Below, piece after piece: positions 3,195 to 34,246 of a stretch of DNA of 64,000 bases. Position numbers and translations under genes: made by a program. Under the pieces are notes generated by a model. That model was not told the DNA's origin and did not search any database. It saw only the letters and a program-made list of their open reading frames with translations. The first letter of the stretch is position 1. Each line of letters begins with the position of its first letter. Origin of the DNA: a virus (lineage: Duplodnaviria > Caudoviricetes); IMG/VR virus record IMGVR_UViG_3300033075_000716, positions 3,935-67,934 of that record, one strand, 5' to 3'.

Positions 3195-3214
3195 CCTACC
3201 GGCAAGATTACGTC

Positions 3215-3475: not shown

Positions 3476-3843
3476 TGGGCACGTTTGAAAATGTCGCTAG
3501 GAAAGTCGTTCGCGGGCTGGAAGACGGGAGCATCGTTCTCGGCCTGGCAGAGTCCTCCCCGGATGTTGTCATCATGGGGAAGGAGTTGACGCCGGAAGAG
3601 TCCGCAATGCTCAATGTCGCTTCGCCCAAGCCAATGAGCCTTTCTCCCGACAAGGAATACGTCGACCAGAACGGCGTGATGGTTCATGAATGGTTCTACA
3701 CTACAGACTCCATACCGACCGAGTTCCCGCCGAGTGCGAACGGAATAAAACGGGTTTCGCGGTGCGTCCTTCACCGGGCGGACGGCATTTATGTGGTGGC
3801 AATAAAAGACGTTGGAGTCGTCACGCCAAAGGCAACCAAATGA
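3475..3843 (+). CDS. hypothetical protein
   Basis: ATG 3475 after GGAG; globular-looking 122-aa product. Confidence 0.55.
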   Translation: MGTFENVARKVVRGLEDGSIVLGLAESSPDVVIMGKELTPEESAMLNVASPKPMSLSPDKEYVDQNGVMVHEWFYTTDSIPTEFPPSANGIKRVSRCVLHRADGIYVVAIKDVGVVTPKATK

Positions 3844-3971
3844 GCAAGAAATCACGCGGGCGAAAGCGTCCCAGTCGCAAAACGATCAAATCGCGTTGTG
3901 AACGGGATCGCGAGCAATCGACGGCATGGCAGACGCGCAACCACTTGAGGCCGAAGCGGAAACACAAGTAG
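3840..3971 (+). CDS. small, highly basic peptide
   Basis: ATGA overlap with the previous stop; MSKKSRGRKRPSRKTIKSR... (43 aa). Confidence 0.3.
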   Translation: MSKKSRGRKRPSRKTIKSRCERDREQSTAWQTRNHLRPKRKHK

Positions 3972-3998
3972 GCGGGATGGAGTGAGACTGCATTATAG

Positions 3999-5612
3999 CT
4001 ACGCCAACCCCGCCCGGTATACCCGCACATGCTTCCCTAACCCAAACCCCGGATTCATCTCGTTAAAGTCCAACACAAGCCGCGCCGCTGCCGTGCTGAC
4101 AGTCCCGAGCGAGCCGATAACCCCGGCGTCAATCCGCTGATCGTCCGCAGCGCCCAGCGACGTGTCGAACGGCGTCAGCAGGCACATGAACGGCGTGCCC
4201 GCCGACTTCGCGGTCAAGATGAGGTTGGACCCTGACCGCGACGGTGTGAGAGCAGATAGCTGCGGATAGGTGACGGCCGACAAGTCGAGCCATGCGGCAA
4301 CGATGTTGTCGATCACTTCCGTTGTTGTCGTGCTGCCCGCGATGAACGTGTTCGTCTCGCCGAAGATATCGACCTTGATTTCGTCGGTCGCTTCCCATGT
4401 CCCGGCGAAGGCGTAGGTGTTGACCTGGGCGACACTGGCGACGGCTTGGTATGAATCGACCACCCGACCGCCGGAATAAACCTCGATGGGATTTGTCACG
4501 GCTTTTGTGCGAGCATCCCCATCAAACGTAAGCAAAGCCCCATCGCTGATTTCCGCGTATCCGCCAAGCGTCCCGGACGTGTTGTAGATGATCGACCCGC
4601 CACGGCAAAGAAGCGACGATACCGCCCCCGTGCCGTTGATTGTGACCGACCCGCCGAAGTTCTGGATGGCGGCTATCGCCGAATTCGTGGTCAAGTCGCC
4701 AGCGTGTTTGATGATGCTGGTCAAGGTGCAACCCGCGCCGGTGCGAACCGTGCCGCCGGTTTGGGTGAACGTCCCGAGCGTCGTCGTCTCGCCGCCGAAC
4801 ACGGCGAAACCAACCTCTCCGCCAAGGACGTTGAACACGTTGGCGGCGTTTGTGCCCTTTAGCAAGACCGCTTCGATGCCTTCATCCGGGCCGCTGTCCG
4901 ATCCGAACACATTGACGGCGGCGGCAAGCGCTGAGCCGAAGTCCAACTGAACGCGGGTCGATCCATCCCCGTCCCGTGAACCGATATTCACGAGCGTTGC
5001 GCCCGCGACTTTTAAGTATCGAGGACGGTATTCCGGGTAAGCAGTCGCGTCTTCGTTGATTGGCGGCAGTCCGATCTTTGCCGACGTAGGAGCGTGGATC
5101 GTCAACGTGGTGATAGCAGTCAACGCTTCCAGGTTGTAGCTAAGCTCCACGTCAGGATCGTCAACCCAAAGCGTATCCCCGTTCGCCGGCAAAGCGAAGT
5201 CATCGTAATTTCTGGCCACGCCGACATCGGACGGGCCGCTATTCGCGGTCGAAATGGTGCCGGCGGAAGAAGCGCCGCCGTCAATCGTCCCTGATGCGGA
5301 ATTTGTCGCCACGGTACAAATGATCGGTTTGCCAACGTGGTCGCCCTGAACGGTAAGCGTGAACGTATCGGCCCCGTCTTCCGTGGCCGCCGCCTCTGCG
5401 AACTCCGGATAAACGTCGGCGTCGAGCGCCGCCCATGCCGCAATCATGTTGTCAAGAATCGTTGTGATGACCGTACTGCCGGTGGTCATTGTGTACGTCT
5501 TGCTGCCCACGGTGAACGTAATCGTTTCGTTCGCGAGCCACGTTCCAGCGAGAACGTAATCGGTCGCTTGCGCGACGAGTGGAGCGCCGCCAGTGTATCG
5601 TTTTACGGCCAT
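3999..5612 (-). CDS. putative virion protein with two copies of a sheath-insertion-like beta module flanking a beta-helix-like region
   Basis: RBS GGGAG before ATG 5612. Internal repeat VAQATDYVLAGTW...AAW...YPEF versus VAQVNTYAFAGTW...AAW...YPQL. G/T/A/V-rich middle region. Confidence 0.6.
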   Translation of the reverse strand: MAVKRYTGGAPLVAQATDYVLAGTWLANETITFTVGSKTYTMTTGSTVITTILDNMIAAWAALDADVYPEFAEAAATEDGADTFTLTVQGDHVGKPIICTVATNSASGTIDGGASSAGTISTANSGPSDVGVARNYDDFALPANGDTLWVDDPDVELSYNLEALTAITTLTIHAPTSAKIGLPPINEDATAYPEYRPRYLKVAGATLVNIGSRDGDGSTRVQLDFGSALAAAVNVFGSDSGPDEGIEAVLLKGTNAANVFNVLGGEVGFAVFGGETTTLGTFTQTGGTVRTGAGCTLTSIIKHAGDLTTNSAIAAIQNFGGSVTINGTGAVSSLLCRGGSIIYNTSGTLGGYAEISDGALLTFDGDARTKAVTNPIEVYSGGRVVDSYQAVASVAQVNTYAFAGTWEATDEIKVDIFGETNTFIAGSTTTTEVIDNIVAAWLDLSAVTYPQLSALTPSRSGSNLILTAKSAGTPFMCLLTPFDTSLGAADDQRIDAGVIGSLGTVSTAAARLVLDFNEMNPGFGLGKHVRVYRAGLA

Positions 5613-8205: not shown

Positions 8206-9300
8206 ATGGCATACTCGCTCAATCAGATTTTGGGCCACGTCCCGTTGACGAAGGCATTGCGCACCAACAGCGCCGTGCCGAATCCATTCCCCGAGCAGCT
8301 ATTCACGGTTGCTGCGGAGAATCGGGTAAGCGGGGACCGCGCCCAATTTATCCAGATTTCCAGCGACCGACGCACGGCCCAGTCCGTGCCGTATGGCGCG
8401 CCGTCCAAGTCTCGCACGCTCCTTGAGATTGGCGAGAAACCGATGCGGATGTTGCACATTTTCGAGAATATCCGCATCGACATGAACATGCTTCTGCAAT
8501 TGCGGAGCTTCGATCAGTACGCGCAGGACAAGGGCCGCGACTGGCTGAATCATCAGCTTGTCGAGGCCGGTCGCCGCGTGGGCAATTCGGAACTTGTCGC
8601 GACTTCGACCGTCTTGCGGTTTGGCGAAATCTACCGCGATATCGACGGCAACGTGCTGCCGACTTCCTCTGGCGCGCAAGACACGTTTTCCTTCAACGTG
8701 CCCGCGACGCATCAAACGACCATCAACGGCATCGTTTCCGCATCCTGGGCACTGTCCACGACCGACATTCCCGGACAGTTGCGAGCGCTGCACCAGTACA
8801 ACGCGCAGGAGCACGGCCCGCGGCTCAAGACGATGCTGTACGGCATCAACTTGCCGAATTACCTCATGCAGAACGACCATGTCCAGGCGCACCTTGTTCG
8901 CAACCCGTCGATGAACGAAAAATTCCTCGGCACCGGCGAGATCCCGGAAGGGCTTTTCGGGTTCAACTGGATTCCCGTTTACGAGGCGTTCATTTCCAAC
9001 GACGCCGGAACGAACACCGAGCTTTGGGACGACGATTTGTGCGTCGCCCTGCCCGACGTGAGCCAGGCCGACAATATGGATTGGTGGGGCATGTTCGAGG
9101 GGTCTTTCATGGTCCCGCGCAAGATCGACATTGCCCGCGATGGCTTGGCGATCCAAGGAAACTTTGAGGAGACTTTCGGCAAGTTCTCCTATGCGTCCTC
9201 CGAACTCGATCCGCCGGGCGCCACGATTCGATATGGGCATACGTTCCTGCCGGGTCTTCGCAATCCGAAAGCGATCTATCAGATCGATACCACGCCGTAA
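8206..9300 (+). CDS. major capsid protein (lambda gpE-like family)
   Basis: 364 aa, strong RBS GAGGA, position after the decoration gene, followed by a GAAA-tetraloop hairpin at 9325-9344. Confidence 0.8.
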   Translation: MAYSLNQILGHVPLTKALRTNSAVPNPFPEQLFTVAAENRVSGDRAQFIQISSDRRTAQSVPYGAPSKSRTLLEIGEKPMRMLHIFENIRIDMNMLLQLRSFDQYAQDKGRDWLNHQLVEAGRRVGNSELVATSTVLRFGEIYRDIDGNVLPTSSGAQDTFSFNVPATHQTTINGIVSASWALSTTDIPGQLRALHQYNAQEHGPRLKTMLYGINLPNYLMQNDHVQAHLVRNPSMNEKFLGTGEIPEGLFGFNWIPVYEAFISNDAGTNTELWDDDLCVALPDVSQADNMDWWGMFEGSFMVPRKIDIARDGLAIQGNFEETFGKFSYASSELDPPGATIRYGHTFLPGLRNPKAIYQIDTTP

Positions 9301-9367
9301 AAACGCCTCAACCCTCCGTAAAATCGCCCCTGGAAACAGGGGCGGGAACCATATAAGGAGAATCACA

Positions 9368-18892: not shown

Positions 18893-21367
18893 GTGACCGT
18901 GCGAATCGCCAAAAACAGTTTCGTTTCAAACGGCGTGGCAACCAGCGACTACCGGCCCACGGCGGTTTATTCGCTGGGCGCTTACCATCCAGCGCTTGAG
19001 CGCGGCACGTTCACTTATTACGACATCGAGGCGATGCGGCGAGATCCGCAATGCCAGATCGGGTTGCGGATTTTGCGCGCGCCCGTCTATCGCGCCGAGT
19101 GGGAAGTGAAGTGCAAAAACGCCAAGGCCGCGCAATGGGCCGATGCTACGCTCAAGCGATTCTGGTCGACCGATCTTGAGAAGGCGTTGCGCATGCTCGA
19201 ATGGGGCAGCGCCGGCGGGGAAGTCGTCTACCGAATCGACAACGACACCGGCCTTGTCGAGTACGTTGAACTTCGCGACATGCACCTTTTCGACATGCGG
19301 GCATTGCAGCAGCATGGGCGGCATGTCGGCATCAAGATCGTTCAAAACAATCGGCGCTTGTTCGCTCCGCGGTTCGCATGGTGGGTCAACGAGCAAGAGT
19401 ATTCCGGGTTGTTTGGCCGGCCGCGATTGGCGGGAGCCTTCGAACCGTGGATGGAGTTGCGCGGCAAGAAAGGCGCGATCGACATTCGGCGTGGGTGGTT
19501 CTTCAAAAACGTGTATCGGTCGCTCATCATGCGGCATCCCCTCGGGACCGTCATGATCGAAGGCCGCGAAATGTCGTGCCAGCAATACGCGCGGCAGATT
19601 ATCGAGGAGGTCGAATCCGGGGCCGGGTTCGCGTTGCCAAGCACGACGGACGAAAACGGCAACGACCAATGGCGCATCGACGACCCGAAGATAAATGGCG
19701 ACGGCACGGTTTTGCTCGAATACCCGAAGCAACTGAACCAAGAGATTTGGACAGGCATGGGCATTCAGCCGGAAGTTGTCCAGGCGAGCGAGACGGGAAG
19801 CGGGTGGAGCGGCCGTAGCGTTCCTTTCACCGTGTTCCTTACCTCTGAGGATCAGATCGTCGATTCGTGCATGAAGGGGTGGAAGCGGAACGCTCTCGAT
19901 CACATGATGCTGGCGAATTTCAACGTAGGTCCGGACGATTACGCGATTGAAGTGAAAAGCCTTGTGCCGACCGATGAGGACCAGAAGGGGCCGGACGGCC
20001 AATCGCCCGGCATGGGTCAACCTGGCAAACCTGGAGGCCAACCGCCGCAAGCGGGGCAACCGTATCGCGGGCCGCGCGGCGGGGTCGGGACGGTCGGAGC
20101 GGGCGGGAAGGTGCAATATGGGGGCGGGACGCAGTTGAGCATGAATGGAACGCTGAGGGACGCCATTCAGGAAGCCGCAGATAATGTAGACACCGACCCC
20201 ACAGACGCACAAAAGGAATCAGGCACATTCCGCAAGGGTCATGTTCGCATCCAGGGTCTTCCAATCGCTATCGAGAATCCCGTTGGCAGTATCCGGAGAG
20301 GAAAGAGTAAAGAAGGCAAAGAATGGTCAATTAAGGTCGGGACGCATTACGGGTACATCAAGAAAACAGAATCGGACGCGGATGGCGACCATATCGACGT
20401 TTTCATAGGCCCAGAGCCGGAAAGTGAACTGGTTTTCGTTGTCGATCAAGTCAAGAAGGACGGGACGTTCGATGAGCATAAATGCCTCATCGGGTTCACC
20501 ACGATGGCGGACGCGAAAGAAGGATACCTTGCGAACTATTCGCCGGGGTGGAAAGGGTGCGGCGACATCACGGCGATGACTATGGACGACTTCAAGGAAT
20601 GGATTTCGACAGGGGACACCAAGAATCCATTCGCGGCCCAGTGTGCGCAATTGAGCCAGGCCGACGAGTGGTTTGATTTGCCGGATGAGGCGTTTAGTGA
20701 TGGGGTTCGAGTTTGGGATGGGGCGAAGTTGTCGGTGGATGCGAGCGGGCATGAGCATCGCGGGACGGGGGAGGGCGGGGGGCAGTTTGTGTCGGGGGGA
20801 GGAGGATCATCGGCCAGCAAAAAAGAAAGCGAATCGAAAGCAAAAGTTAAGGGCGAGGTGACGACCATCAATGAATACCGCGCCGAACACAAGCGGATTA
20901 AAAGCGAATGGGCGAAAGATGTATGGGATGAGGTTCAAAAGAAATGGGACAACGGCGAGACAGTTCAATTCAACACGATGACCAGAACTTCGCCAGTAAG
21001 CCCGAAAAACCGCGCAGCAATGAAGTTCCAAAACGGCATGATTTACGCCGCCCGTGGTAAGCGTTGGGATTCTTTGGATGGCCAAGCAATCGAAACGCTG
21101 GCCCATAATGTCGGCGTGAAAGCGCCGGAATATCCGGACAGACCAGAGGTTGAGGATGTCGAAGAGAAAGCCGCGTACGAAATGACTCGCGACGAATACG
21201 CAATGACATCAAGCGACCCTATTATCCGGGAAGCAAGGCGGAAGGGGCACAAAGAAGAAGTGGAAATCGCTATGGAGTACGGGGATGTGCCCGACCGAGT
21301 TTTAGCCGACTACCCAGACCTGGCCGCGAAGTACGCCGCGAAGAAGAAGGACACCAATGCAAGCTAA
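18893..21367 (+). CDS. portal protein (Mu gp29/DUF935-like) fused to an inorganic-pyrophosphatase-like domain
   Basis: N-terminal portal region (IEAMRRDPQC, LRMLEWGSAGGEVVY, GRPRL). Residues at about 20200-20620 read GHVRIQGLPIAIENPVGS...HYGYI...DGDHIDVFIG...FDEHKCLIGF, matching the InPase domain of phage polyvalent proteins. Confidence 0.8.
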   Translation: MTVRIAKNSFVSNGVATSDYRPTAVYSLGAYHPALERGTFTYYDIEAMRRDPQCQIGLRILRAPVYRAEWEVKCKNAKAAQWADATLKRFWSTDLEKALRMLEWGSAGGEVVYRIDNDTGLVEYVELRDMHLFDMRALQQHGRHVGIKIVQNNRRLFAPRFAWWVNEQEYSGLFGRPRLAGAFEPWMELRGKKGAIDIRRGWFFKNVYRSLIMRHPLGTVMIEGREMSCQQYARQIIEEVESGAGFALPSTTDENGNDQWRIDDPKINGDGTVLLEYPKQLNQEIWTGMGIQPEVVQASETGSGWSGRSVPFTVFLTSEDQIVDSCMKGWKRNALDHMMLANFNVGPDDYAIEVKSLVPTDEDQKGPDGQSPGMGQPGKPGGQPPQAGQPYRGPRGGVGTVGAGGKVQYGGGTQLSMNGTLRDAIQEAADNVDTDPTDAQKESGTFRKGHVRIQGLPIAIENPVGSIRRGKSKEGKEWSIKVGTHYGYIKKTESDADGDHIDVFIGPEPESELVFVVDQVKKDGTFDEHKCLIGFTTMADAKEGYLANYSPGWKGCGDITAMTMDDFKEWISTGDTKNPFAAQCAQLSQADEWFDLPDEAFSDGVRVWDGAKLSVDASGHEHRGTGEGGGQFVSGGGGSSASKKESESKAKVKGEVTTINEYRAEHKRIKSEWAKDVWDEVQKKWDNGETVQFNTMTRTSPVSPKNRAAMKFQNGMIYAARGKRWDSLDGQAIETLAHNVGVKAPEYPDRPEVEDVEEKAAYEMTRDEYAMTSSDPIIREARRKGHKEEVEIAMEYGDVPDRVLADYPDLAAKYAAKKKDTNAS

Positions 21368-24300
21368 ATTCGACGGCGACGAAATCGTAGTACGTCTCAC
21401 GCCAAAGCATCCCAAGTACGCGGACCTGGCCCGCATGCTCTACGCCCGTCGCATGGGCGATGCGATCACGCTGAGCCGCGACGCCGTAGGCCACGAGCAC
21501 GGAAACGACGGACGATTCGCGTCAACCGGCGGGATCGGCGGGGGGACGTCCGTTGTCGACGCGCCAAAGGAAGCGAAAACCGACAAGCCGAAAACCGTTG
21601 CTGACATTCACACCCAAGCCGACGCCCTTGCCGAAAACCACGCAAACAGCGGCATTCTCGCCAAACTTGGGGCAGCGGGAAAGTGGATGAAGGACAAGAC
21701 CAAGGCGGTCTATGATCGGATGGAGAGCCGATACGGGCGCAAGACGGCTATCGCGATCTTCGCGGCTGGGCACGTCGCGGGCCTGGCGACGCCGCTCGTA
21801 GTGGTCCCTGGGTCAACGCTGATCGGCATGGCTCCATTCGCGGCCATGGCGGAGATTTACTTGCAAGCGAGGAAGGGCGCGAAGGCAATCGGCTTGAGCC
21901 AACTTGATGAACTTTCCGTCGATGAAATTTTGGCGGAAGGGGCGAAGCTGGCGGATGAGTTACGCGAGGCGTGGGAGGGGTATCAGGAAACGAAGTTGAG
22001 CGCGTCGCATGCGCCAGTTGGCGGGGTCACGATTCAGGGGCGTGAGTTCGCGGGGGGCGAGTTCATTCCGGGTGATGTGATGGCGCAGGCCACGGGGGTG
22101 GAGAAGGCAAAAGTGGGTGGAGCGAAATCGAACAGCGGCAACAATGCCCAAGCAAGCACGAGAGAGGATAGGATTGCCGCAAAAAAGAAGATGCGAAACG
22201 ACGTTCGCGTCGCGGCTAAAGAAGCGTTCGGAGACAAGATCGAGGTCGATGGGAATGAAATTTCAATCCAAGATAACGGACGAGGAATCGATTTGGAGTT
22301 CTACCCAAAGAACAAATCGGTATTTGTGGAATTTACCCAAACGCCAAGCAAAGTAGTCGATAAAAGCACGAAACAAAACACGCGAACCGCATGGGACACG
22401 ACAGCGAAAAATCTGCAAACCGGAACAGTGGACTTGGCGCATAAGTTCAAGGGGTTCATTCAGAAAATGCGAACCTCTGGCGTAGGAGTCGAATATGAAA
22501 CGACTGAACCGAGACGCGCCAGAATTTACGCGAAAGTTCTTTCGGACGCAGGATTCGAGCAAGCAGAATCCGACGATTCGGGAAGGGTTGTCTGGAGGCC
22601 GAAGGTCGACAAGGAATTGGCACTAAGCCAATCCGCCGACGACCTCGAAGACCCCTACCACGCCCTTGCGTCCCTCTACGCCGACCTATGGAACCTGACC
22701 GGCCAAACGCCCGACGATGACGAACTGGAGACGGTAGGCGGCGAACTAGCTGACGGGGGATGGGTTCTTTACCACGATGGGGATCAGTGGAAGGTGCGAG
22801 AGGGGGTTGGCGCGGTTGAGTTGTCGCAAGCCCGCGCCCCTAAAGGGGGGGTTCAAATCGGATCAAGATGGTATGCCGGCGGCAAATGGATTCCATCCGC
22901 CGAGGTCGCCAAAGCGGACCCGGCGACGAAAGCGAAGATTGAGAAATCGGCCGACGAGCATCACGGAAAACGCGCGTCACGCGGAGATGTGGACGTGAAG
23001 GCGCTCAAGGAAAAGCTATCACCCCATGCCGGGCAGACGCTTGACAAACACGAATCGAGATCCGCGAAGTTGGCCTATGCGGCGCTCAAGCGGCATCACG
23101 GCGACTTGCTCTATCATCGCCTGGAGGAATTGGGGAACCAACTGCACGAAGCATTGCAGAACACCCCGGAAGACGAGGAAGGGCAACGCGGGCAGATTTC
23201 GCGGCGATTGAAGGCCGTTCATGACATGCTGACGCGGGCGGAAGGAGAAGGAGTGAAGCAGAGGGAAGTTGCGGAGACGCCGAAGCCGGCCTGGCAGCAA
23301 ACGCAGGCCGAATACGTTGAGGCCAAGCCGCAAGCGGACCCGGCGACCATTGCGAATCCCGGGGCTGTGAAAGAGGAAGCGAAGCCGGCGGGGAAGAAAG
23401 AGCCGTCGATTCAGGCACATGAAAAGATCGCAGACGCATTCAATCGACTTTCAAAAGACGGATTCGCCTCGACGCAAAAACTACGAGAGTCCTTGCCCGA
23501 TATGCCTCAAGAGGAATTCGACACAGCCCTTTATAAGCTGCGCACCGAGCACGGGTTCCACGCCACAGGCGACGACTTGACGAAGATCGATGGCATGGGA
23601 ACGCCGCTACCGAAGCGGACGCAGACCGAAGCGCCCAAGGCGAAGCCGCAACCGGAAAACGAGCCTGTCCCAGAGCCGAAAAAGCCGAAAGAAAAAGCGG
23701 AACATATCGCAGGATTGCTTGGCGACCGGGCAGCTATGCATGATGGGCTTGCTCCGCTGGCAAACGTCTACAACGACTTGCAGCGGCACTATCCCGATAT
23801 GAGCGTGAAGCAGTTTCAAGATTTCCTTAAGGATGCGAAAAAAGAACGCGCCGTGAGTTTGAAGATTTTGAACGAGGTTCGCACGCAGACGCCACAGGAT
23901 CGAAAGGTAAATATCCTTGTTCCAGATGCGCAAGGGAGCAATACGACGCTTGGATTTTTGGGAAGCGTCGATGAGGCGAAATTGGCGGAAGTCGCGAGAA
24001 GGCATTTTGGGGAGCCGAAGGGCGAGACGCCGAAGCCATCCGCCGCGAAACCGATCCATGAGAAAATCAAGGACGTTTTCAACCCGCCAGCGAAAGATAC
24101 CGCCAAGCCGAAAGAATCCATCACGCCCGAGCAAGCTGAAGCCCGCAAGTGGAAGAAGAACGAAGACGGAACATACACGGCACCGAACGGAACGGTATGG
24201 CGGAAAGCCAAAGCGGGCGGGGAAGAATCGCCCGTCACCGGCGAGCCGTTCAAAGGTGGATCGCTGATGCCGATTCATGGGCTTGCGCCGAAGAAACCGC

Positions 24301-25469
24301 AGAGCGAAGGGCAAGGCCAATCGGCTGGGGACGTGAAGCCAAACGAACAGGCCAAAGAACGCGGCAAGCCGCAACCTGTTCAGCAGATGACGCCGGAAGA
24401 TATTGAGGCCGAAAAGCAGCGGCGAGAGGACGGCAAGAAGTGGGACGAAATGAACGCTGGGCCGCTGGGGGAAATGAAGTGGATGGGAGAAAACCCGAAC
24501 GGTAAAGCGATGGCAAACAGCGTGATTTCTCTTTCTCCGTGGCGAGATTACGCAAGCAATATCGGAGAGAATGGAGTCAAGTCGATCATTGAGAAGATTG
24601 AGCCTCTTGTTTCCGCCAAAATAAAAGCCGAAGTTGAGGCGGCGGGGCTGGGACCGAAAGACCAAGAATGGTATTTTGGCCAATTAAAAGACACGAGCGA
24701 TGCAGAGGCTTATGAGCCAAGAAAAACACAAGCGCACGCCAAAGAAGTCCCTTCGAGCCTGTATGCGAGAAATTTAGTGCAAGAGGCTTTATCTGGGGCA
24801 AAAACCGTTTCTGACATGCACGCCATCAACGGCATACTTGCGGACGCGGCCAAGCCGAAAGAGGCACAGCCCGACGCAGCGAGCAAGGAACCGAAGCCGC
24901 AGCCCCCAGCCAATCACGTCCCCCCTACCGTGGCAATCAGCGACCGCGCTTACGCGGATCGATCCTTGACCCACGCTGAGATTGACGCGCACGTCGATTC
25001 CCTCAAGGGATTGAGCGTTGCCCAATTGCGGGAAATTGGGGCGACCGAGGAAGTGCCGGCCAGCGGGAATACCAAGGGGCAGTTGCTTGAAAGTATCCGG
25101 CAATCGCTGCATGGGCGGAAAGAGAACGCGGAGCGGACGGGGAGAGGGAAAACGAAACCGCAAGCCCCAGACCCCAAAACCAACGCCTCGAAAATAGCCG
25201 CCTCATTCGATAAGTTGGACACCGGCCGCAATTACCTCCCAATCGCCAAACTCCGCGCCGCACACCCCGAACTGAGCAAAGCTGACTTTGACGCGGCGGT
25301 CAATCACTTGCGGCGCAACGAAGGTTTCACCGGCGGGGCGCACGAGGGGCGGCATGGACTGACGCAGGAGGAATTGGACACGGCGATTCGCGACGAACGC
25401 GGCGACGGGCAGACACCTACGCTGATCGGGTATTTGTCGAGGCGAAATAATTCCCTTGGCGGAGTTTGA
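21357..25469 (+). CDS. polyvalent (multi-module) head-associated protein
   Basis: 1370 aa, located between portal and MuF. Repeated GGxxxxGxxF/YxGGxxxP motifs, three winged-helix-like modules and P/K/E-rich linkers. Confidence 0.7.
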   Translation: MQAKFDGDEIVVRLTPKHPKYADLARMLYARRMGDAITLSRDAVGHEHGNDGRFASTGGIGGGTSVVDAPKEAKTDKPKTVADIHTQADALAENHANSGILAKLGAAGKWMKDKTKAVYDRMESRYGRKTAIAIFAAGHVAGLATPLVVVPGSTLIGMAPFAAMAEIYLQARKGAKAIGLSQLDELSVDEILAEGAKLADELREAWEGYQETKLSASHAPVGGVTIQGREFAGGEFIPGDVMAQATGVEKAKVGGAKSNSGNNAQASTREDRIAAKKKMRNDVRVAAKEAFGDKIEVDGNEISIQDNGRGIDLEFYPKNKSVFVEFTQTPSKVVDKSTKQNTRTAWDTTAKNLQTGTVDLAHKFKGFIQKMRTSGVGVEYETTEPRRARIYAKVLSDAGFEQAESDDSGRVVWRPKVDKELALSQSADDLEDPYHALASLYADLWNLTGQTPDDDELETVGGELADGGWVLYHDGDQWKVREGVGAVELSQARAPKGGVQIGSRWYAGGKWIPSAEVAKADPATKAKIEKSADEHHGKRASRGDVDVKALKEKLSPHAGQTLDKHESRSAKLAYAALKRHHGDLLYHRLEELGNQLHEALQNTPEDEEGQRGQISRRLKAVHDMLTRAEGEGVKQREVAETPKPAWQQTQAEYVEAKPQADPATIANPGAVKEEAKPAGKKEPSIQAHEKIADAFNRLSKDGFASTQKLRESLPDMPQEEFDTALYKLRTEHGFHATGDDLTKIDGMGTPLPKRTQTEAPKAKPQPENEPVPEPKKPKEKAEHIAGLLGDRAAMHDGLAPLANVYNDLQRHYPDMSVKQFQDFLKDAKKERAVSLKILNEVRTQTPQDRKVNILVPDAQGSNTTLGFLGSVDEAKLAEVARRHFGEPKGETPKPSAAKPIHEKIKDVFNPPAKDTAKPKESITPEQAEARKWKKNEDGTYTAPNGTVWRKAKAGGEESPVTGEPFKGGSLMPIHGLAPKKPQSEGQGQSAGDVKPNEQAKERGKPQPVQQMTPEDIEAEKQRREDGKKWDEMNAGPLGEMKWMGENPNGKAMANSVISLSPWRDYASNIGENGVKSIIEKIEPLVSAKIKAEVEAAGLGPKDQEWYFGQLKDTSDAEAYEPRKTQAHAKEVPSSLYARNLVQEALSGAKTVSDMHAINGILADAAKPKEAQPDAASKEPKPQPPANHVPPTVAISDRAYADRSLTHAEIDAHVDSLKGLSVAQLREIGATEEVPASGNTKGQLLESIRQSLHGRKENAERTGRGKTKPQAPDPKTNASKIAASFDKLDTGRNYLPIAKLRAAHPELSKADFDAAVNHLRRNEGFTGGAHEGRHGLTQEELDTAIRDERGDGQTPTLIGYLSRRNNSLGGV

Positions 25470-25529
25470 TAAATAACACTTCCCCGTCCGGTTGACCGCC
25501 GGGCAATTTGTACGCCATACCATAGAATC

Positions 25530-25847
25530 ATGAAAACCCTATCCCAACTCGCCCGCGCCGCCGAACATCGCCTTGCCGTAATCCAGGCCGTGCAAGAATG
25601 CCTCCACGTTCCCGAAAACGTACTGGCCAATTATCCGGACGTTCACGAGGTCTACCTGTCCATGCACGGGCGAGAGGATGACGCCGTGCGACTGTCCGCC
25701 CAACTTCCCAAGTCCGAATCCCCAATCCTTGACGCTGTTCTCCAACGAAGCCTCCCCGCCGGCGTCGCCGTCTCGCAAGAAGTCATCCGCCGCGTGCGCG
25801 AGATTGTAAAAAAAAAGCGACCCCCGGAGAGTTCCTTGCCCGAGTGA
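25530..25847 (+). CDS. hypothetical protein
   Basis: ATG 14 nt after TTGTACGC (25508-25515); coupled to MuF. Confidence 0.55.
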   Translation: MKTLSQLARAAEHRLAVIQAVQECLHVPENVLANYPDVHEVYLSMHGREDDAVRLSAQLPKSESPILDAVLQRSLPAGVAVSQEVIRRVREIVKKKRPPESSLPE

Positions 25848-27796
25848 GGGACGTTCTCGCGGAGTATGAGCCGCTTCTTGCCGCGACCATCAGCGACGCC
25901 CTCCTGGCCGGATGGCTCTACGCTGGGCAGCAACTTGCCGAGCGGCCGGAACTGGAAGACGAATTGCCGGAAGAGGACGAAGGCGAGTTATTTCCGTCCA
26001 AGCAATTCGCGGATGACGGACCGCCCGACGACGACGATCCTCCTACCCTTCAACTGCCGGACCCCGACGAAGATTCTCCCATCGAGTTCCCGTTGCTTCA
26101 AGAGGCGGCCGACTCGCTCGCTACGAAGCGTGTCGTCACGCAGGACGAGTTCAACGAAATCAGCGACCGATTGCGCGAACAGGCGTTTTCCATCGCGTCC
26201 GTGGCGAACCTGGACGCCCTGGAGAAGCTACAGACGGCGTTGACCGACGATATTCGCGACGGCGGCACGTTGGAAGAATTCGCGGATCGCGTGGAGGAAG
26301 TTCTTGGAACGTCGGCACTCGCGCCGCACCATATCGAGAACGTCTACCGCACGAACATTGCCGCGGCGATTGGCGAAGCGGAACAAACGATTCTGGATAA
26401 CGAATACGTCAACTCGGCATTTCCTTACGTCGAGGTTGTCGTCACGCATGACGGTCGGACGCGGAAGAGTCACAAGTATTTCGAGACGGGGGGGATTGAT
26501 GGGACAGCGATTTACAGGAGCGATGATCCAGTTATTCGCAAGTTCTGGCCAGGTTCATGGGACTACCAGTGTTTACCTAGAGACGCAGTAGTGAGAACAT
26601 CTACTGGTCCAAAAGACATTTGTAAAATCAAGACAGGGGATTTGGTTTTAACTCACAAGGGAAGACTTCGCCCGGTTCTTGGCTCTCACACGTCCAAAGG
26701 GCCATCGGAAATTGTATCCTTGCACTTCGATGACGGTTCCGTTTGTTCGTTGACTGATAACCATCGTGTTCTTTCCGAGAACGGTTGGGTCGAATCTGGA
26801 CGCCTTAATGTCGGCGACGAGGTTTTCAAGTATTCCAATTCGACCACGGCGGATATGGTAGCCGCAAAAGTAGATGATGGTTTTAAGCCCGGCGTCTCGG
26901 CAAATGAAATCGTGTCGATCTTCGCACGGGCGGGCATTGATCTTTTGGATTTCCAGGCCAATTTCCAATTCGGGAAGATAAAAGTCGAGCCAAAACGGCG
27001 CGACATTGTGATTAAAGGAATACTGAACACCAATGCCGTCAAGGCTGGCGGCAACTATGGTTTCATACTTGGACATCTTGGCGACAAAATTTGGATGCTT
27101 TTCGGGTTGAATGAACTGGTTTCTCTTTTGGGTGTCCGACATTTTCTTTCTGACATCAGGCGTGCGACAATGGGCATGCATAGTGTCTATCATGGCCTGT
27201 CTGACTTCCGGAGTCCTATTAGCCATGTGTGCTCGATTAGCCTCTCTGATCTTCTCTGCACGATCCGGATGAGTTGCGTAATGGGCGGCATTCGCTTCCC
27301 CGCCGCTTCTCATCACGATGCCATTGGCGGCGAATATCCGCATGGCGGCGCGATATTGGATGTTCGCCCGTCTGCAAATTTCAGACAAACTGGCTTTTCC
27401 GGACCTGTACTCAGCGAAAGCGGCATCTATGCCGCCGGGCCAAGAATCGAACTTAGCGATAGCTTTTTTGGAATATGTCGCGGATCGATTTGGTTGTTTT
27501 CTCATACCTACAATTGTACCAGCACGACCAAGAAAGTAAAAGCCAAGAAGAGACTGCCATGGGGCGGCCAGGATGTTTTCAATCTGTCTGTCCTTGATGA
27601 CGAGAGTTTCATTGCCAACGATACCGTCGTCCACAACTGCCGCTGCGGTTCGATCATGTTGACCCGCGAAGACGCCGCGAAAAAAGGCTTGCGCGAAGCT
27701 CAAGAATGGGTACGAACAGGCACGCCGCCCCCTTACACCTACGTCGAACATCCTCCTTTTGAACCGTGGGAGAGGCCGCCGCCGGAGTGGCGTTGA
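25844..27796 (+). CDS. MuF / SPP1 gp7-like head morphogenesis protein precursor containing an intein
   Basis: HIENVYRTNIAAA and HDGRTRKSH motifs; the conserved ...YQ-CRC motif is split by an intein. Confidence 0.85.
   Translation: MRDVLAEYEPLLAATISDALLAGWLYAGQQLAERPELEDELPEEDEGELFPSKQFADDGPPDDDDPPTLQLPDPDEDSPIEFPLLQEAADSLATKRVVTQDEFNEISDRLREQAFSIASVANLDALEKLQTALTDDIRDGGTLEEFADRVEEVLGTSALAPHHIENVYRTNIAAAIGEAEQTILDNEYVNSAFPYVEVVVTHDGRTRKSHKYFETGGIDGTAIYRSDDPVIRKFWPGSWDYQCLPRDAVVRTSTGPKDICKIKTGDLVLTHKGRLRPVLGSHTSKGPSEIVSLHFDDGSVCSLTDNHRVLSENGWVESGRLNVGDEVFKYSNSTTADMVAAKVDDGFKPGVSANEIVSIFARAGIDLLDFQANFQFGKIKVEPKRRDIVIKGILNTNAVKAGGNYGFILGHLGDKIWMLFGLNELVSLLGVRHFLSDIRRATMGMHSVYHGLSDFRSPISHVCSISLSDLLCTIRMSCVMGGIRFPAASHHDAIGGEYPHGGAILDVRPSANFRQTGFSGPVLSESGIYAAGPRIELSDSFFGICRGSIWLFSHTYNCTSTTKKVKAKKRLPWGGQDVFNLSVLDDESFIANDTVVHNCRCGSIMLTREDAAKKGLREAQEWVRTGTPPPYTYVEHPPFEPWERPPPEWR
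26648..27505 (-). CDS. PD-(D/E)xK (DUF559/Vsr-like) endonuclease encoded antisense inside the intein
   Basis: 285-aa ORF from ATG 27505. Basic helical N-terminus (VRKKMSDTQK), then SKYETIVAASL...YSFNHNVAPFWLDFYLPELEIGLEI. Confidence 0.8.
   Translation of the reverse strand: MRKQPNRSATYSKKAIAKFDSWPGGIDAAFAEYRSGKASLSEICRRANIQYRAAMRIFAANGIVMRSGGEANAAHYATHPDRAEKIREANRAHMANRTPEVRQAMIDTMHAHCRTPDVRKKMSDTQKRNQFIQPEKHPNFVAKMSKYETIVAASLDGIGVQYSFNHNVAPFWLDFYLPELEIGLEIQKINARPCEDRHDFICRDAGLKTIIYFCGYHIRRGRIGILENLVADIKASRFDPTVLGKNTMVISQRTNGTVIEVQGYNFRWPFGRVRAKNRAKSSLVS
27513..27540 (-). promoter_or_regulatory. candidate sigma70-type promoter for the antisense endonuclease (leaderless)
   Basis: Minus strand TTTACT-16 nt-TACAAT with an extended TG; the -10 ends 7 nt before ATG 27505. 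Confidence 0.55.
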
Positions 27797-27908
27797 CGCG
27801 AAAGGCAATGCACGAAAGCAAAGTTTGCATTTTCTGCGATTTGCTTTAACCGATTGGCATTTGGTACGGTTGCGCCCTGAAATAAGAACAGGGGGCGAGG
27901 GCGCGAGC

Positions 27909-28400
27909 GTGCAATCGAAAACAGACAAAGACGCGATCAAGGCGGCAATCACGGAACGGGCAAAAGAACTGGTCGGCGAAGCGATGCGCGAATTGACCCA
28001 AGAGGCAGGGTATCCGCTCGCTCGCCTGGCTGAGTTCGCGAACGCCGCCCGCGTGGGGCAACTATTGACTCACGTTCTCGCCACGGCGCGGACATTGTTC
28101 GTTTCCCAAGACGCGGACGATGAGGACGGCAAAGAGAGCGTGAGCATTGCATCCAGGCCGGTGGACGGGGCCGCAAGCAATGTGACGCGGGAGACGATCC
28201 TTGGGGCGTTGGAAGCGATTTGCGGAAAGCAGAGAAAGAAATCATGCCCGCGATGCAACGGCGGGCTAGGTAAACGCCGGCCGTTGAGCGAGTTCCCGGT
28301 GAACATGACGCGAGACGATGGACGCGGCAAATACTGCAAAACATGCGAGCGGAAGCGGAAGCAGGAATACGACGAGAAGAAAAAAAATGCCGCAACCTAA
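27909..28400 (+). CDS. protein with C-terminal Zn finger
   Basis: CPRC...PLSEF...DGRGKYCKTC motif; GTG start. Confidence 0.6.
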   Translation: MQSKTDKDAIKAAITERAKELVGEAMRELTQEAGYPLARLAEFANAARVGQLLTHVLATARTLFVSQDADDEDGKESVSIASRPVDGAASNVTRETILGALEAICGKQRKKSCPRCNGGLGKRRPLSEFPVNMTRDDGRGKYCKTCERKRKQEYDEKKKNAAT

Positions 28401-30313: not shown

Positions 30314-33300
30314 ATGTTCCGGGCAACATTCGGCGGCAAAACCTGTTACGGATCGGCGAACGAAGTGCAGCAATTGGAGGCCGAGGGGCTGCCAATTCCG
30401 CCCGACTTCTATCGCGCCACGTCCTTTTGGAATCCCCTTGGCCCGGCGGCGGGCAAGGGATGGCTCTTGATGCGACGGCGCGATATCGACGCGCTCGACC
30501 TGAACGCCCTGCACGATCTTCGATTCGAGCATGAGCCGGAAAGCGGCGCGAAGCAAGTCCGCATGTTCCGTTCGCTTGTCATCGCGTGCGAGCCGCGCAA
30601 CCTCTTTCCCGGATTCAAGCCAAACGACCCAGATTCGCTCTACCTTGTCGAAGTCGCCGACGTGCGGCACTTGCTCGACAACGATCAATTCACGTTTCCG
30701 ATCAACAAACAGTACAACGTCCGCGCCTACGCGCACCTGGGGGCAGGGGACGCCACGGAGTATCTTGCCGATTCGCTCAACAGCGGCACGCTCTGGACCT
30801 GGGCGACGATGATTGCCGACGTGTGGACTCTCATGGCCGCACGCCTAGGGGCCGCGCCGGCCCTTCCCGTCACTCCGCACGGCACGCCGGAGGGGTTTAT
30901 CTTCCAGGGGGGATCGGCTTGGCGGACGCTTAACGTCTTGCTCTCCCGGATCGGTTGCGCGATCTCCGCGGACTTGAGCCAGGTAGCCGGAAGCCAGTTT
31001 TCAATCGTTCAAGTCGGCGCGGCGGACGCGGCCACGGATGCGATCTTGTCTAGGTGGGAAACGTCAAAGGTCTACGATGCCGAGTGGGTAGACGTTATTC
31101 GTGGTGTGACGCCCTACGGCGTTCGCGTGTTCTTTCATCGACAGGAGCAATATCCAGGGCTTGAGCAGACGACACCTCGCACGGCATCGAACTGGCAAAC
31201 GGGATCGGCTTATTCCGTGGACGTTGCGGGGCCGGACGCCGCCAGCGCGGAACCTGGAACGTATCATCCGATTTGGGACGATCTTCCCGCGATTTATGAT
31301 TCAACCGGCACGCTGACGAATACCACCGCGTTGGGGCAGCGGGCGCAAGAGCGAGCCGACGATTTCTTTCGGCAGAATCGCGCGGAAGAACTGCACAAGA
31401 CCTATCCCGGTTTCATGCCGATCGCGCCTGGCAGCACGCTCCGCGCCGTCATGCACCGGGACGGCGTTGATGGCGCGACGACGGAAATCGTCCGGCATCC
31501 GTACCTTTACTTCCGCGCGGCGGGCATGACGTGGGAGCCATTGTCATGGATGGACTCGACGCGACTGCATGCGCCGGACCTTTCCCCGTCATGGCCAGCG
31601 CAGCAAGCCCAGCTTGTCAAGATTCTTGAGATAGAAAACGGCACGCCCGCAAGCAATCGATATGATTGCACGGTTCAACTTCGCGACTCCGCCGGCGGAT
31701 GGCTGGAGAAGGAAAGCGTCTACGCGGTTGACCTGGCTGGGGCCGCGAGTCTCACGGCGGGGGATCGATACGACGGCCTGCTTGTCGGATACGAAGGTAG
31801 TCGGCCTCTGTTCGCGATTGATAGTCGCGGAACGCCGGTGGAAGAGATTTGCACGGCCTATGAAGGCGAAGCTGACGACACGCTCGCCCTGACCAATGAC
31901 ACCTGGGCCGACATTCCAGGAACAGACGTTGAGCTTGTCATCACGGCCGAAGCCGAAGCCTTACTCATCGCGGTCTTCCAATTCGACGGCAACGGCACGG
32001 CGGCCGTCACGGTTGACGGGGCCGGCGCTGGATCGACGGACGTTTACGAGGGCCGTTTCGTCATAGACGGAACGCCCGTTGCGCCTCTCGCTAAATGCTC
32101 GATAACGCATCCTGTTGAGACAAAAACGATCCCGATGCCGCCGGTACTCGTCACGCTCGCGGTAGGGACTTACACAGTCAAGCAGCAGGCCCGCAAACTG
32201 AGCGGCAGCGGCGAAGCGATAACCGGACTCGAAACAGGATGGACGTTGACGGCGGCTTGCGGGGCCAAAGGCAATCAAGGAATCCAAGGCGAGACAGGAT
32301 CGACAGGGCCGCGCGGCAAACGCGGGTTCCCGATGCCAGCGATTCGCGTCGATGACAGCTACCATTTCGCCGTGCCATCTCGCCCGCCTGGGCAATCGGT
32401 CAAAGTCTTGACCGAAAAACTCAAGACGCTAATCAAGAAGCGAACCTATCTGCTACCGTCTCGTAGCGACGATTCTGTTTCTTTCGCCGCGCCATCGCGC
32501 CCGCCGGGGAAATCGGAACGGAAGATTATCAACGATCTGCGAACCTGGATCGACGTCACATGGAACGTCACGGGCGGAACGTGGAACGTCACAAACACGA
32601 CGATCAATTACACCACGGTCGCGCATAATTGGACCAGCGTAACATGGGTCGTTGACGGTGGAACATGGGACATAACCAACGTCACAATAGATTGGGATAC
32701 AGTCGTCTGGAATGTGGTCGATGCGACGTTCAATATCGAGACGACGGAGATCAACTGGACAACAAACATTTGGGTTGTTGACGGCGGGACGTGGACGATA
32801 ACAGACACCACGATTGACCTCATCACGCTGACGCAAAATTGGACCACGGTGGTTTGGGTTGTCGACGGCGGAACGTGGGACATAACAGATACCGTCATCG
32901 ACTACACCGACGTTACGGTGAACATCGGCGGCAATTCGCTCTGGATTTGGGCGGCAAACACCGCCAACTATTTCCAGGGGAAAAGCTACTTCTCCGGCCC
33001 GGTGGTGTGGGTGCATCCCGTCCAAACGAATTGGGTTTCAAACGTCTGCCCAATCAACAACACCTTCGCAAAAACGGTAAGCGGCACAACATCGATCACG
33101 AGCGACACGTTGACCGACCTGACCGGATCGTCGTCCACGTTCTCGATGGCCACAAGTGCCGATGTCCATATCACCGCGATCTTCGATTTCAACGGGGACG
33201 GCGCGGCCACGGTTGCGGACCAGTTCGAGGGGCACCTAATCGTCGACACCGTGGATCAATCGGGCGTGGCGACGTTCGGCGTATGCCATGCATCGCACCG

Positions 33301-34246
33301 ATCAACGGTATCTCAAGCATGGGTGATTAACCTTGGCAGCGGCTCGCACACGATCAAGCTGCAAGCCAAGCGGGTGGCCGCTTCTGGCGGAGACATTATC
33401 CTTGGCGAAAACACGCGATGGACGCTCCACGCGGACACCGAATTGAATCTTGAACGCCGCGTTGTCTACCTGCCAACCGGCACGCAATTGGGCGCGTATT
33501 CCTGCGAAGTCGCTGTCACCTGTTGCCCGCCTGATGGCGGCGGCAATGATCCCGATGGACCGCCGGGCGACGAGTGCCCGCCATGCGATCAAGCCGAAAG
33601 CACTTGGAGCGTCACGATTGCCGACGCATCGGGCTGCACCACGGACCCCAACGGGGCGTACACTCTGGCGAAAGTCGCTGGCTGTTTCTGGCAGGGCACG
33701 GTCAACCAGTCGGTTGTATCGCTCCAATTGAGCGAGCGTGAAGACGGGCAATTCGATTTCACGCTATACGCGGAGAACGGCGATTTCGTGTACTCGGGCA
33801 TAGGCGCTGGGACATGCTGTACCGATGAGGTTGTAACGCTCGATTTGGTCGAGTCGACTTGCACGATGCCGGCGACATTGTCGCTGACTAATGGGTGCGT
33901 TCCAGGTGTGGATTGTGCGGGGGCGTTGGAGATTGCGGCGGGGGTGACGTATGGGCCGTTTACGCTTGCTGGCTTGAGCGAGCATTGGTTCAAGGTGGAG
34001 CACGCAGGCGGGGATTTCAATGCAACCATCAACGCATCGGCAATATCCACCACGCCGAACGATGAAATACTTGCTTACAACGGAACGTGCGAAGCCCTGA
34101 ACGATCTTTCCTTGACGCCGGCGGCAATCGGCATTGGTGCAAGCTGTCACGAATCGACGGTTGCGGCGGGGACTGTCTGGTTCAAGATCATTTCGAGCGA
34201 CACGGGATGCACCTACACGATTACATACGAGGCCGCCGCATGTTAG
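30314..34246 (+). CDS. large tail / tail-fibre protein
   Basis: 1310 aa. Short collagen-like GxxGxxG run, W/T/V-rich WxVDGGTWxIT repeats, duplicated beta-sandwich module and Cys-rich C-terminus. ATG 15 nt after TTGCACGC (30291). Confidence 0.65.
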   Translation: MFRATFGGKTCYGSANEVQQLEAEGLPIPPDFYRATSFWNPLGPAAGKGWLLMRRRDIDALDLNALHDLRFEHEPESGAKQVRMFRSLVIACEPRNLFPGFKPNDPDSLYLVEVADVRHLLDNDQFTFPINKQYNVRAYAHLGAGDATEYLADSLNSGTLWTWATMIADVWTLMAARLGAAPALPVTPHGTPEGFIFQGGSAWRTLNVLLSRIGCAISADLSQVAGSQFSIVQVGAADAATDAILSRWETSKVYDAEWVDVIRGVTPYGVRVFFHRQEQYPGLEQTTPRTASNWQTGSAYSVDVAGPDAASAEPGTYHPIWDDLPAIYDSTGTLTNTTALGQRAQERADDFFRQNRAEELHKTYPGFMPIAPGSTLRAVMHRDGVDGATTEIVRHPYLYFRAAGMTWEPLSWMDSTRLHAPDLSPSWPAQQAQLVKILEIENGTPASNRYDCTVQLRDSAGGWLEKESVYAVDLAGAASLTAGDRYDGLLVGYEGSRPLFAIDSRGTPVEEICTAYEGEADDTLALTNDTWADIPGTDVELVITAEAEALLIAVFQFDGNGTAAVTVDGAGAGSTDVYEGRFVIDGTPVAPLAKCSITHPVETKTIPMPPVLVTLAVGTYTVKQQARKLSGSGEAITGLETGWTLTAACGAKGNQGIQGETGSTGPRGKRGFPMPAIRVDDSYHFAVPSRPPGQSVKVLTEKLKTLIKKRTYLLPSRSDDSVSFAAPSRPPGKSERKIINDLRTWIDVTWNVTGGTWNVTNTTINYTTVAHNWTSVTWVVDGGTWDITNVTIDWDTVVWNVVDATFNIETTEINWTTNIWVVDGGTWTITDTTIDLITLTQNWTTVVWVVDGGTWDITDTVIDYTDVTVNIGGNSLWIWAANTANYFQGKSYFSGPVVWVHPVQTNWVSNVCPINNTFAKTVSGTTSITSDTLTDLTGSSSTFSMATSADVHITAIFDFNGDGAATVADQFEGHLIVDTVDQSGVATFGVCHASHRSTVSQAWVINLGSGSHTIKLQAKRVAASGGDIILGENTRWTLHADTELNLERRVVYLPTGTQLGAYSCEVAVTCCPPDGGGNDPDGPPGDECPPCDQAESTWSVTIADASGCTTDPNGAYTLAKVAGCFWQGTVNQSVVSLQLSEREDGQFDFTLYAENGDFVYSGIGAGTCCTDEVVTLDLVESTCTMPATLSLTNGCVPGVDCAGALEIAAGVTYGPFTLAGLSEHWFKVEHAGGDFNATINASAISTTPNDEILAYNGTCEALNDLSLTPAAIGIGASCHESTVAAGTVWFKIISSDTGCTYTITYEAAAC

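Follow-up and report, generated by a model that had tools for sequence, protein, structure and literature searches.

Full inteins that carry an antisense LAGLIDADG or VSR-like endonuclease were recently described by Gosselin, Arsenault and Gogarten (bioRxiv 10.1101/2025.01.02.630785), who found actinophage minor capsid proteins to be invaded by such non-canonical inteins alone. The same preprint credited the antisense LAGLIDADG cases to Gorbalenya 1998 and proposed invasion by a free-standing gene as the origin, with inversion as a route to in-frame forms; codon usage and promoters are not mentioned in its text. Here we analysed a stretch of 64,000 nucleotides (the window; positions 3,935 to 67,934 of the IMG/VR virus record IMGVR_UViG_3300033075_000716, Caudoviricetes) in which the gene of a MuF-type head protein contains an intein and, within the intein on the opposite strand, a nuclease gene. 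This layout is already described in the 2025 preprint, and the window is a further example of it. The window locus resembles the inteins of Gosselin et al. in its MuF-type host, the contiguous intein, the antisense endonuclease between the splicing blocks and the unfolded sense stretch. The match to Vsr (1CW0) has a Z of 10.6 over residues 144-267 in their protein and, with VIA-align, of 10.5 over residues 142-270 (108 aligned) in the model of the window nuclease (P0002), and Gordonia phage MuF genes also match the P0002 family on the antisense strand. In contrast to their cases, the window copy comes from an uncultivated phage, and its nuclease open reading frame (ORF), as at the other loci compared here, reaches beyond the loop and covers 60-90 codons of the N-terminal splicing lobe (N lobe) of the intein.

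Three other systems are related in part. In the cyanobacterial dnaX intein, the ratio of nonsynonymous to synonymous substitution rates (dN/dS) is low in the nuclease frame and relaxed in the host frame (Phillips et al., bioRxiv 10.64898/2026.09.14.751524). That intein is like ours in having its endonuclease in a frame other than the intein's and in its frame-specific dN/dS, but the nuclease is of the LAGLIDADG type, and the host gene and the organisms are different. Gorbalenya is said to have reported in 1998 (NAR 26:1741) an antisense or out-of-frame LAGLIDADG endonuclease in this intein. In the fractured genes, a free-standing Vsr-like or GIY-YIG endonuclease gene lies between the halves of a split intein (Dassa et al. 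2009, PMC2677866, in which the word 'antisense' is absent). They share with the window a separate gene of the Vsr superfamily in the endonuclease slot of a phage intein, and gp41-1, the best structural match of the window intein lobes, is one of the fractured-gene inteins; the host frame of the window, in contrast, is continuous and kept so by codon choice. I-Bth0305I (EDxHD, PDB 3R3P; Taylor et al. 2011, PMC3239194) has, like the presumed architecture of P0002, an N-terminal modular DNA-binding region followed by a Vsr-like catalytic domain, but it is encoded on the sense strand in a group I intron of recA. A sequence search of the PDB with P0002 gave no match, and no significant one to I-Bth0305I. 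Membership of P0002 in the EDxHD family was considered and dropped, as the motif is not conserved in its subfamily and its own E-D-R-H-D stretch is not conserved in relatives. New here are the codon-avoidance statistics with a control, the strand flip of dN/dS for the Vsr-like type, a leaderless-type promoter signature, the overlap of the nuclease C-terminus with block B, the in-frame relatives at the same site and the finding of copies without annotation in cultured phages of Salmonella and Gordonia.

The locus is probably a composite selfish element in the MuF/gp7 gene, made of an intein and an antisense homing endonuclease, with the host frame read through. An earlier reading of the letters and ORFs of the window (the original prediction) had proposed an intein with intact blocks A, B, F and G in the MuF gene, about 230 amino acids (aa) without motif or stop on its sense strand, and a codon-aligned minus-strand protein of 285 aa; all three were confirmed (Table 1). 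The plus-strand ORF 25844-27796 reads as 650 aa without an internal stop. Its product is a MuF / SPP1-gp7-type head-morphogenesis protein by its matches to phrog_220 and Pfam Phage_Mu_F (PF04233). The Pfam match does not reach the cut-off, since the domain is broken up by the intein; a Phage_Mu_F domain ending in the H.NCRC motif was found in the host gene.

The intein is inserted within the conserved ..N↓CRC motif of MuF (arrows mark intein boundaries). It has Cys1, T62-x-x-H65 and a terminal H355-N356, and is followed by the +1 Cys of CRC. Its structural model gave 28 Foldseek matches at E<=1e-3, with gp41-1 as the best (9e-7), followed by DnaB and RecA mini-inteins and hedgehog; the top fold matches are all inteins. 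Pfam models of the HINT family matched weakly, under their cut-offs. In an alignment of eight inteins (the window and seven homologues), T62 and H65 of block B, G72 and W73 are invariant, position 1 is Cys or Ser, the terminus is (H/S)N and the +1 residue is Cys. Position 1 is Ser in L004 and L006, the terminus is Ser-Asn instead of His-Asn in L003 and L004, and the inteins of L007 and L008 are without a 22-aa segment of the N lobe (GD.VLTH.GR.RPV). The intein looks splicing-competent, and its conserved residues together with selection for an open frame argue for protein splicing; computed removal of the intein leaves an extein product of 294 aa, the size foreseen in the original prediction. 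The sense stretch between the lobes contains no Pfam domain and is modelled by AlphaFold with a predicted local distance difference test score (pLDDT) of 24-47. It is the reverse reading of the nuclease gene, without constraint on its amino acids.

The nuclease gene itself is real. The minus-strand frame is open from 27952 to 26648 with an ATG at 27505, and the gene shares its codon triplets with MuF (both frames lie at coordinates 2 mod 3). AlphaFold, run on a 21-sequence alignment, gave a mean pLDDT of 87; the model begins with eight helices (residues 7-132), continues into an alpha/beta domain and is ordered up to about residue 270. Besides Vsr, VIA-align matched the model to 3hrl (the DUF559-like NGO0050; Z 10.7, rmsd 2.2, 91 aligned), 1vsr (Z 10.0) and 3r3p of I-Bth0305I (Z 9.0), the catalytic domain of which was also the best Foldseek match. 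The helical region, presumed to bind DNA, has repeated P(E/D)VR..M motifs that are common to the nuclease modules of in-frame inteins. Among 21 diverged family members E148, G159, E185, R197 and Y212 are invariant, and W172 and D174 are at least 90% conserved; E148, D174 and E185 are related to the Vsr catalytic residues by motif alone. The label Vsr/DUF559 is given because of this fold and because of homology to in-frame intein domains that match DUF559. The link is transitive: P0002 matches P0031, a MuF protein with an in-frame intein domain, by BLASTP at E 5e-15 (P0031 residues 236-332; the alignment takes in the P(E/D)VR repeats, the PEKHPNF motif that both proteins have and, of the nuclease, its first half), and the adjoining P0031 residues 305-380 match DUF559 at 7e-16. 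The DUF559/Vsr-like core first proposed from sequence therefore stands by fold and by its in-frame homologues and not by a direct Pfam match; the suggested search of both strands with profile models recovered phrog_220 and Phage_Mu_F on the sense strand and no Pfam family for the minus-strand protein.

Table 1. Features of the intein and nuclease locus, in window coordinates.
Feature	Position	Strand	Remarks
N-extein of MuF	25844..26569	+	ends ..FWPGSWDYQ; phrog_220 3e-19, Phage_Mu_F 8e-5
Whole intein, class-1 type, 356 aa	26570..27637	+	C243 to N598 of the ORF, then CRC
Intein N-terminal splicing lobe, residues 1-89, blocks A and B	26570..26836	+	AlphaFold pLDDT 72-92
Sense 'linker', intein residues 90-317, 228 aa	26837..27520	+	no stop, no motif, no predicted fold
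Intein C-terminal splicing lobe, residues 318-356, blocks F and G, ..VVHN	27521..27637	+	pLDDT 79-91
C-extein	27638..27796	+	CRCGSIMLTRED.. up to the stop; aligned to the C-termini of intein-less P0058, P0060-P0063
Homing-endonuclease gene P0002, 285 aa	26648..27505	-	54 phmmer relatives; AlphaFold pLDDT 87; no TTA, CTA, TCA
N-terminal helical region, nuclease residues 1-141	27083..27505	-	eight helices at high pLDDT
Vsr / DUF559-like PD-(D/E)xK-type nuclease domain, residues 142-270	26696..27082	-	VIA-align, Foldseek
Nuclease residues ~224-285 over intein N-lobe residues 27-89, including block B	26648..26836	both	shared codons
Promoter-like TTTACT-16 nt-TACAAT, TG upstream	27513..27540	-	consensus scan

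Relatives of the nuclease were collected by an exhaustive phmmer search, which returned 54 proteins at E<=1e-3, seven of them under 1e-30, the best with 42% identity over its full length. Every relative for which DNA was available showed the same layout, that is L002-L008 (L002, L003 and L004 being short metagenome contigs and L005, L006 and L007 coming from IMG/VR) and the Salmonella phage locus L016. At L002-L008 the nuclease (24-42% identity) is antisense and codon-aligned within an intein at the ..N↓C(R)(C/S) site of MuF, with the host frame open throughout. The L007-type nuclease joins the family by profile comparison (97.7%); L007 and L008 carry HTH_7 at the N-terminus of the nuclease, L008-L010 are close to L007, and L009 and L010 are near-identical to L008. 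The screen of phages for antisense nuclease ORFs that had been suggested from the outset was productive: tblastn with the L007 nuclease matched 125 GenBank phage records (62 Salmonella, 15 Pseudomonas, 11 Gordonia, 8 Klebsiella and others), and among the 15 of these records listed, most matches lay under genes named 'head morphogenesis' or 'MuF-like minor capsid protein'. Two records were inspected. Salmonella phage SaI_NFG_5577 (L016; PQ488694.1, 6456-8315) has a 623-aa head gene with ..AHPN↓C...AHN↓CRS and an intact, unannotated antisense ORF of 269 aa, and in Gordonia phage Vivi2 the match is antisense within the annotated MuF-like gene. With P0002 itself, tblastn against 50,697 GenBank phage records gave nothing but hits at E 0.3-0.7, a word-indexed homologue search gave no match and a PHROGs search gave one weak match (2e-3). 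There was also no match for P0011 by tblastn against GenBank phages and nothing in single-protein scans of viral contigs with P0002 and P0001; a metagenome profile scan with family alignment A2 returned one contig, already in the set, and alignment A1 was too diverse for locus scans.

With both frames on the same triplets, the sense frame can acquire a stop solely through TTA, CTA or TCA in the nuclease gene. In the eight nuclease genes TTA or CTA was used for 0 of 141 Leu codons and TCA for 0 of 82 TCN codons, while 17% of the codons of the other four-fold families end in A and about half of those in the other two-fold purine-ending families do. Thus 0 forbidden codons were observed where about 52 were expected, with a joint P near 1e-28, somewhat less extreme when L008 is omitted as a relative of L007. 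As a control, the same predictor was applied to the four homologous in-frame modules (L012-L015), in which 28 such codons were observed and 38 expected; these modules have 3-10 antisense stops each and no open antisense frame. As the in-frame controls use TTA, CTA and TCA normally, the avoidance belongs specifically to nuclease genes in antisense. Selection keeps the sense frame open, and the codon counts speak strongly for translation of the host frame across the nuclease gene.

Selection was further examined with Nei-Gojobori dN/dS in both frames from one pair, L007 and L008, whose MuF proteins are 59% identical. In the exteins (DNA identity 60-66%) dN/dS was 0.13-0.17 in the sense and 0.8-1.05 in the antisense frame, and in the nuclease core between the lobes (70%) the values flipped to 0.99 in the sense and 0.22 in the antisense frame. 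The intein C-terminal lobe past the nuclease start (90%) gave 0.04 sense and 1.07 antisense, and the nuclease tail over the N lobe (89%) gave 0.30 sense and 0.16 antisense. Raw codon-position counts showed the same strand flip. Because of this flip, the sense linker is taken to be unconstrained and the nuclease to be under purifying selection, the outcome that the original prediction had asked of a test of each frame. Its description of the DNA as 'fully dual-coding' has to be narrowed: both frames are open, but in the nuclease core the sense frame is merely stop-free, and two-sided constraint was seen just where the nuclease tail overlaps the N lobe. In the same pair (2380-4317 of each), the DNA of intein and nuclease is 75-90% identical and that of the exteins 60-66%, and the proportion of synonymous differences (pS) is 0.59 in the nuclease core vs 0.71 in the exteins. 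These values hint at a transfer of intein and nuclease between diverged phages.

Intein-less MuF alleles exist. The homologues P0058-P0063 are 40-64% identical to the N-extein, have a precomputed PF04233 assignment and an uninterrupted ..CRC.., and the C-extein aligns with P0058 and P0060-P0063 right behind their ..W.(F/W).↓CRC. The most similar, P0058 (333 aa, named SPP1 gp7 family), shares 64% identity with the N-extein, reads ..WDFA-CRC.. without a break and has a C-terminus that almost equals that of the window MuF; alleles of this kind could be substrates of the nuclease.

The class-1 intein sits in the ..N↓CRC motif, its lobes (residues 1-89 and 318-356) parted by 228 residues that are the reverse of the nuclease gene, and the nuclease joins a helical half, presumed to bind DNA, to one with the Vsr/DUF559-like nuclease fold. 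From this we infer splicing, transcription of the antisense gene and where it begins, cleavage and the site that is cut, and homing. The nuclease gene probably has its own promoter within the coding region of the intein C-terminal lobe, with the transcript starting at or beside the AUG, so the nuclease would be made independently of the late head gene. TTA, CTA and TCA all have synonyms, and with none of the three used the ribosome would read MuF straight through. The unfolded linker would be tolerated, and splicing would remove lobes and linker together to leave the 294-aa MuF. During co-infection the nuclease presumably cuts intein-less MuF alleles near ..YQ↓CRC, and repair would then copy the intein and the nuclease gene jointly.

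The promoter-like site of Table 1 was the sole one found by the consensus scan on the minus strand between 26400 and 28100, and its -10 hexamer ends 7 nt ahead of the nuclease ATG. In the window, L002, L005 and L006 alike, TACAAT was found 6-7 nt ahead of the ATG, yet its phase against the sense codons is of two kinds among these loci, which argues for a signal at the DNA level rather than a by-product of the sense protein. This position suggests a leaderless or near-leaderless nuclease mRNA. L003 and L004 have instead a TATAAT/TATGAT box about 45 nt upstream and a Shine-Dalgarno-like AGGA/GGGGA. The -10-like hexamer also lies within a perfect 10-nt palindrome, TACAATTGTA, at 27509-27518 and just upstream of 43 in L002; because of the palindrome, TACAAT is present on both strands in the window and L002.

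More distant phmmer relatives of the nuclease were MuF proteins with an in-frame DUF559 intein domain (P0029, P0031, P0040, P0041, P0048, P0051 and P0056). These inteins have homologous lobes (33-41% identity in the N lobe) and a homologous nuclease module, and are inserted at the same or an adjacent site (HxN↓CRC). They differ in that the module belongs to the intein polypeptide and contains a zinc ribbon, that it is matched by Pfam DUF559 without an intermediate, and that TTA, CTA and TCA occur freely in it. In a tree of the concatenated lobes, built from few sequences and without an outgroup, one branch (support 97/100) parts six antisense-type from eight in-frame-type inteins, which is compatible with a single change of orientation. 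The original prediction had a free-standing gene invading a mini-intein in reverse. An antisense nuclease in an intein is indeed present, but with homologous modules at the same site the inversion of an in-frame module could also account for it, and the origin may be either of the two. Among the in-frame proteins, P0029, P0040, P0051 and P0056 (L015) carry varied C-terminal cargo (Zeta_toxin, an ATLF-like domain, a HipA-like kinase and topoisomerase IB), which fits MuF proteins as carriers of variable C-terminal domains.

The tail of the nuclease overlaps the N lobe to an extent that differs between loci, with 26 codons between the end of the nuclease ORF and the first intein residue in the window and 2 codons in L007. 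Within the overlap invariant residues of the two proteins mirror each other, nuclease M248 standing opposite intein H65 and D239-P240 opposite V74-W73, and both the Vsr alignment and the order of the nuclease model extend to about residue 270, into this region. In eight loci the tail has about 53 sense CTN, TCN and TTR codons (about 47 without L008), none of them forbidden; since the tail is defined by its own stop, this count is only suggestive of a tail kept open by selection. The overlapping residues may be selected for the nuclease or be a mere echo of block B, and 26648..26836 is a candidate for a region of true two-protein coding. One may tentatively go further and combine about 150 nt (approximately 26696-26836) of truly two-protein DNA with a leaderless nuclease mRNA and a single origin by inversion of an in-frame DUF559 module, a combination that we regard as possible rather than probable. 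The last Vsr-like beta-strands (residues ~224-270) and block B may in that case be coded codon-against-codon, with both under selection.

Several observations weigh against the interpretation as a composite homing element. There is no RNA run among the sequencing runs listed for the stretch. Pfam gave no match of P0002 to DUF559 (PF04480) or Vsr (PF03852) at E<=1, and none of the 21 family members matched either at E<=0.1. The His after the E.DG motif of DUF559 proteins is missing in the P0002 subfamily, and of the window stretch E195-D196-R197-H198-D199 only R197 is conserved in the family; for these reasons the catalytic competence of the nuclease is not certain. The greater similarity of intein than extein in L007 and L008 could come partly from double constraint and not from transfer. 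The GC-rich window frequently has antisense ORFs of 350-430 aa opposite real genes, TTA, CTA and TCA make up 1.3% of the codons in its real genes, and under host codon usage the probability (P) that the sense frame stays free of stops across the 219-codon core is about 0.17 (0.07-0.18). Significance from the window alone was rejected as too weak, and the case for the antisense gene therefore rests on the relatives. Three antisense ORFs of 355-428 aa, at 18926-20212 (-), 23607-24683 (-) and 8299-9366 (-), face long ORFs of the plus strand; they have probably arisen by chance where TTA, CTA and TCA are little used, and are a caution against claims in this genome that both strands are open.

The host gene raises a further objection, as the window copy of MuF may need a frameshift or be damaged. 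A run of nine A (25808-25816) splits the N-terminal region of MuF (25473-25850) into two frames, and intein-less P0058 has both parts in one frame. The ORF at 25473-25850 terminates in ..VREIVKKKRPPESSLPE and a stop, the MuF frame has no stop as far back as 25733 (..KKKATPGEFLARVRDVLAEYEP), and the real MuF start may lie upstream of 25844. The frames join at gtA AAA AAA AAG, with an A_AAA_AAG heptamer in the upstream frame, which we take to be a -1 slippery site of the dnaX type. The split may stem from an indel in the homopolymer or from programmed -1 frameshifting. The letters of the A9 region are identical in the Logan contigs of run X1, which covers almost all of the stretch and is possibly the assembly's own source sample, and contigs from three runs of one study, X1 among them, contained no joints, variants or intein-less form at the locus.

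Among the other explanations, it is unlikely, but worth weighing, that the nuclease is a selfish free-standing gene sheltering in a dispensable loop, with another target or mobilising itself and not serving intein homing. Such a gene would need nothing from the intein protein, having its own start codon and promoter-like site, and phages are known to have free-standing genes for Vsr-like endonucleases (PMC2677866). However, every relative with DNA lies within an intein at the same MuF site, the splicing lobes track the nuclease arrangement along the 97/100 branch, and both lobes and nuclease of L007 and L008 are more similar than their exteins. We give slightly less credence to a relic, in which the intein is fixed and splicing, the nuclease is dead or not homing and the ORF is kept for DNA binding or regulation. 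The missing DUF559 His (E.DG..H) and the lack of conservation of the E-D-x-H-D stretch would agree with this, and some clusters of Vsr-like endonucleases look vertically inherited (bioRxiv 10.1101/2025.01.02.630785). Against a relic speak the antisense dN/dS of 0.22, the conservation of E148, E185 and R197 (invariant) and of D174 (at least 90%) in 21 members, and the coexistence of intein-less alleles among close relatives; a decaying antisense ORF would also be expected to gather stops fast.

Under a third explanation, the host frame would not be read through at all, the locus working as a split intein or 'fractured gene' that relies on restarting internally. An arrangement with Vsr-like endonuclease genes between intein halves is known (PMC2677866). 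There is, however, no sense stop at any locus, and the absence of forbidden codons makes sense under read-through alone, which renders this explanation highly improbable. A chance minus-strand frame of a GC-rich genome, with the sense linker a degenerate in-frame endonuclease, is refuted by the 54 relatives, the confident Vsr-like fold and the antisense purifying selection over a neutral, unfolded sense frame, even though long antisense ORFs occur opposite other window genes and the minus ORF has no Pfam match.

A composite element of this kind would be a clean natural case of DNA translated both ways, with the cost paid in synonymous codon choice alone, and useful for teaching and testing ideas on overlapping genes. 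It would show how a homing endonuclease can be timed without regard to a late structural gene. The cultured-phage records that were inspected have no annotation for the nuclease gene, which matters for phage annotation and for calling inteins 'mini' or 'decaying'. In-frame and antisense versions at one MuF site form a paired system for endonuclease entry into inteins, and the Salmonella phages are carriers that are tractable in the laboratory.

Some neighbouring genes were also noted. An 824-aa protein (18893-21367, +) has a domain of about 160 aa (residues ~420-585) that matches many PHROGs at 1e-35 to 1e-47, whose labels vary (minor head protein, DarB-like antirestriction, endolysin and virion structural). 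The giant ORFs near it, 21357-25469 (1370 aa) and 30314-34246 (1310 aa), matched nothing. Directly at the end of the MuF gene, the ORF 27759-28400 (+) overlaps its final 38 nt, and the C-terminal 55 residues of this ORF match phrog_5558 (Lar-like restriction alleviation) at 9e-7.

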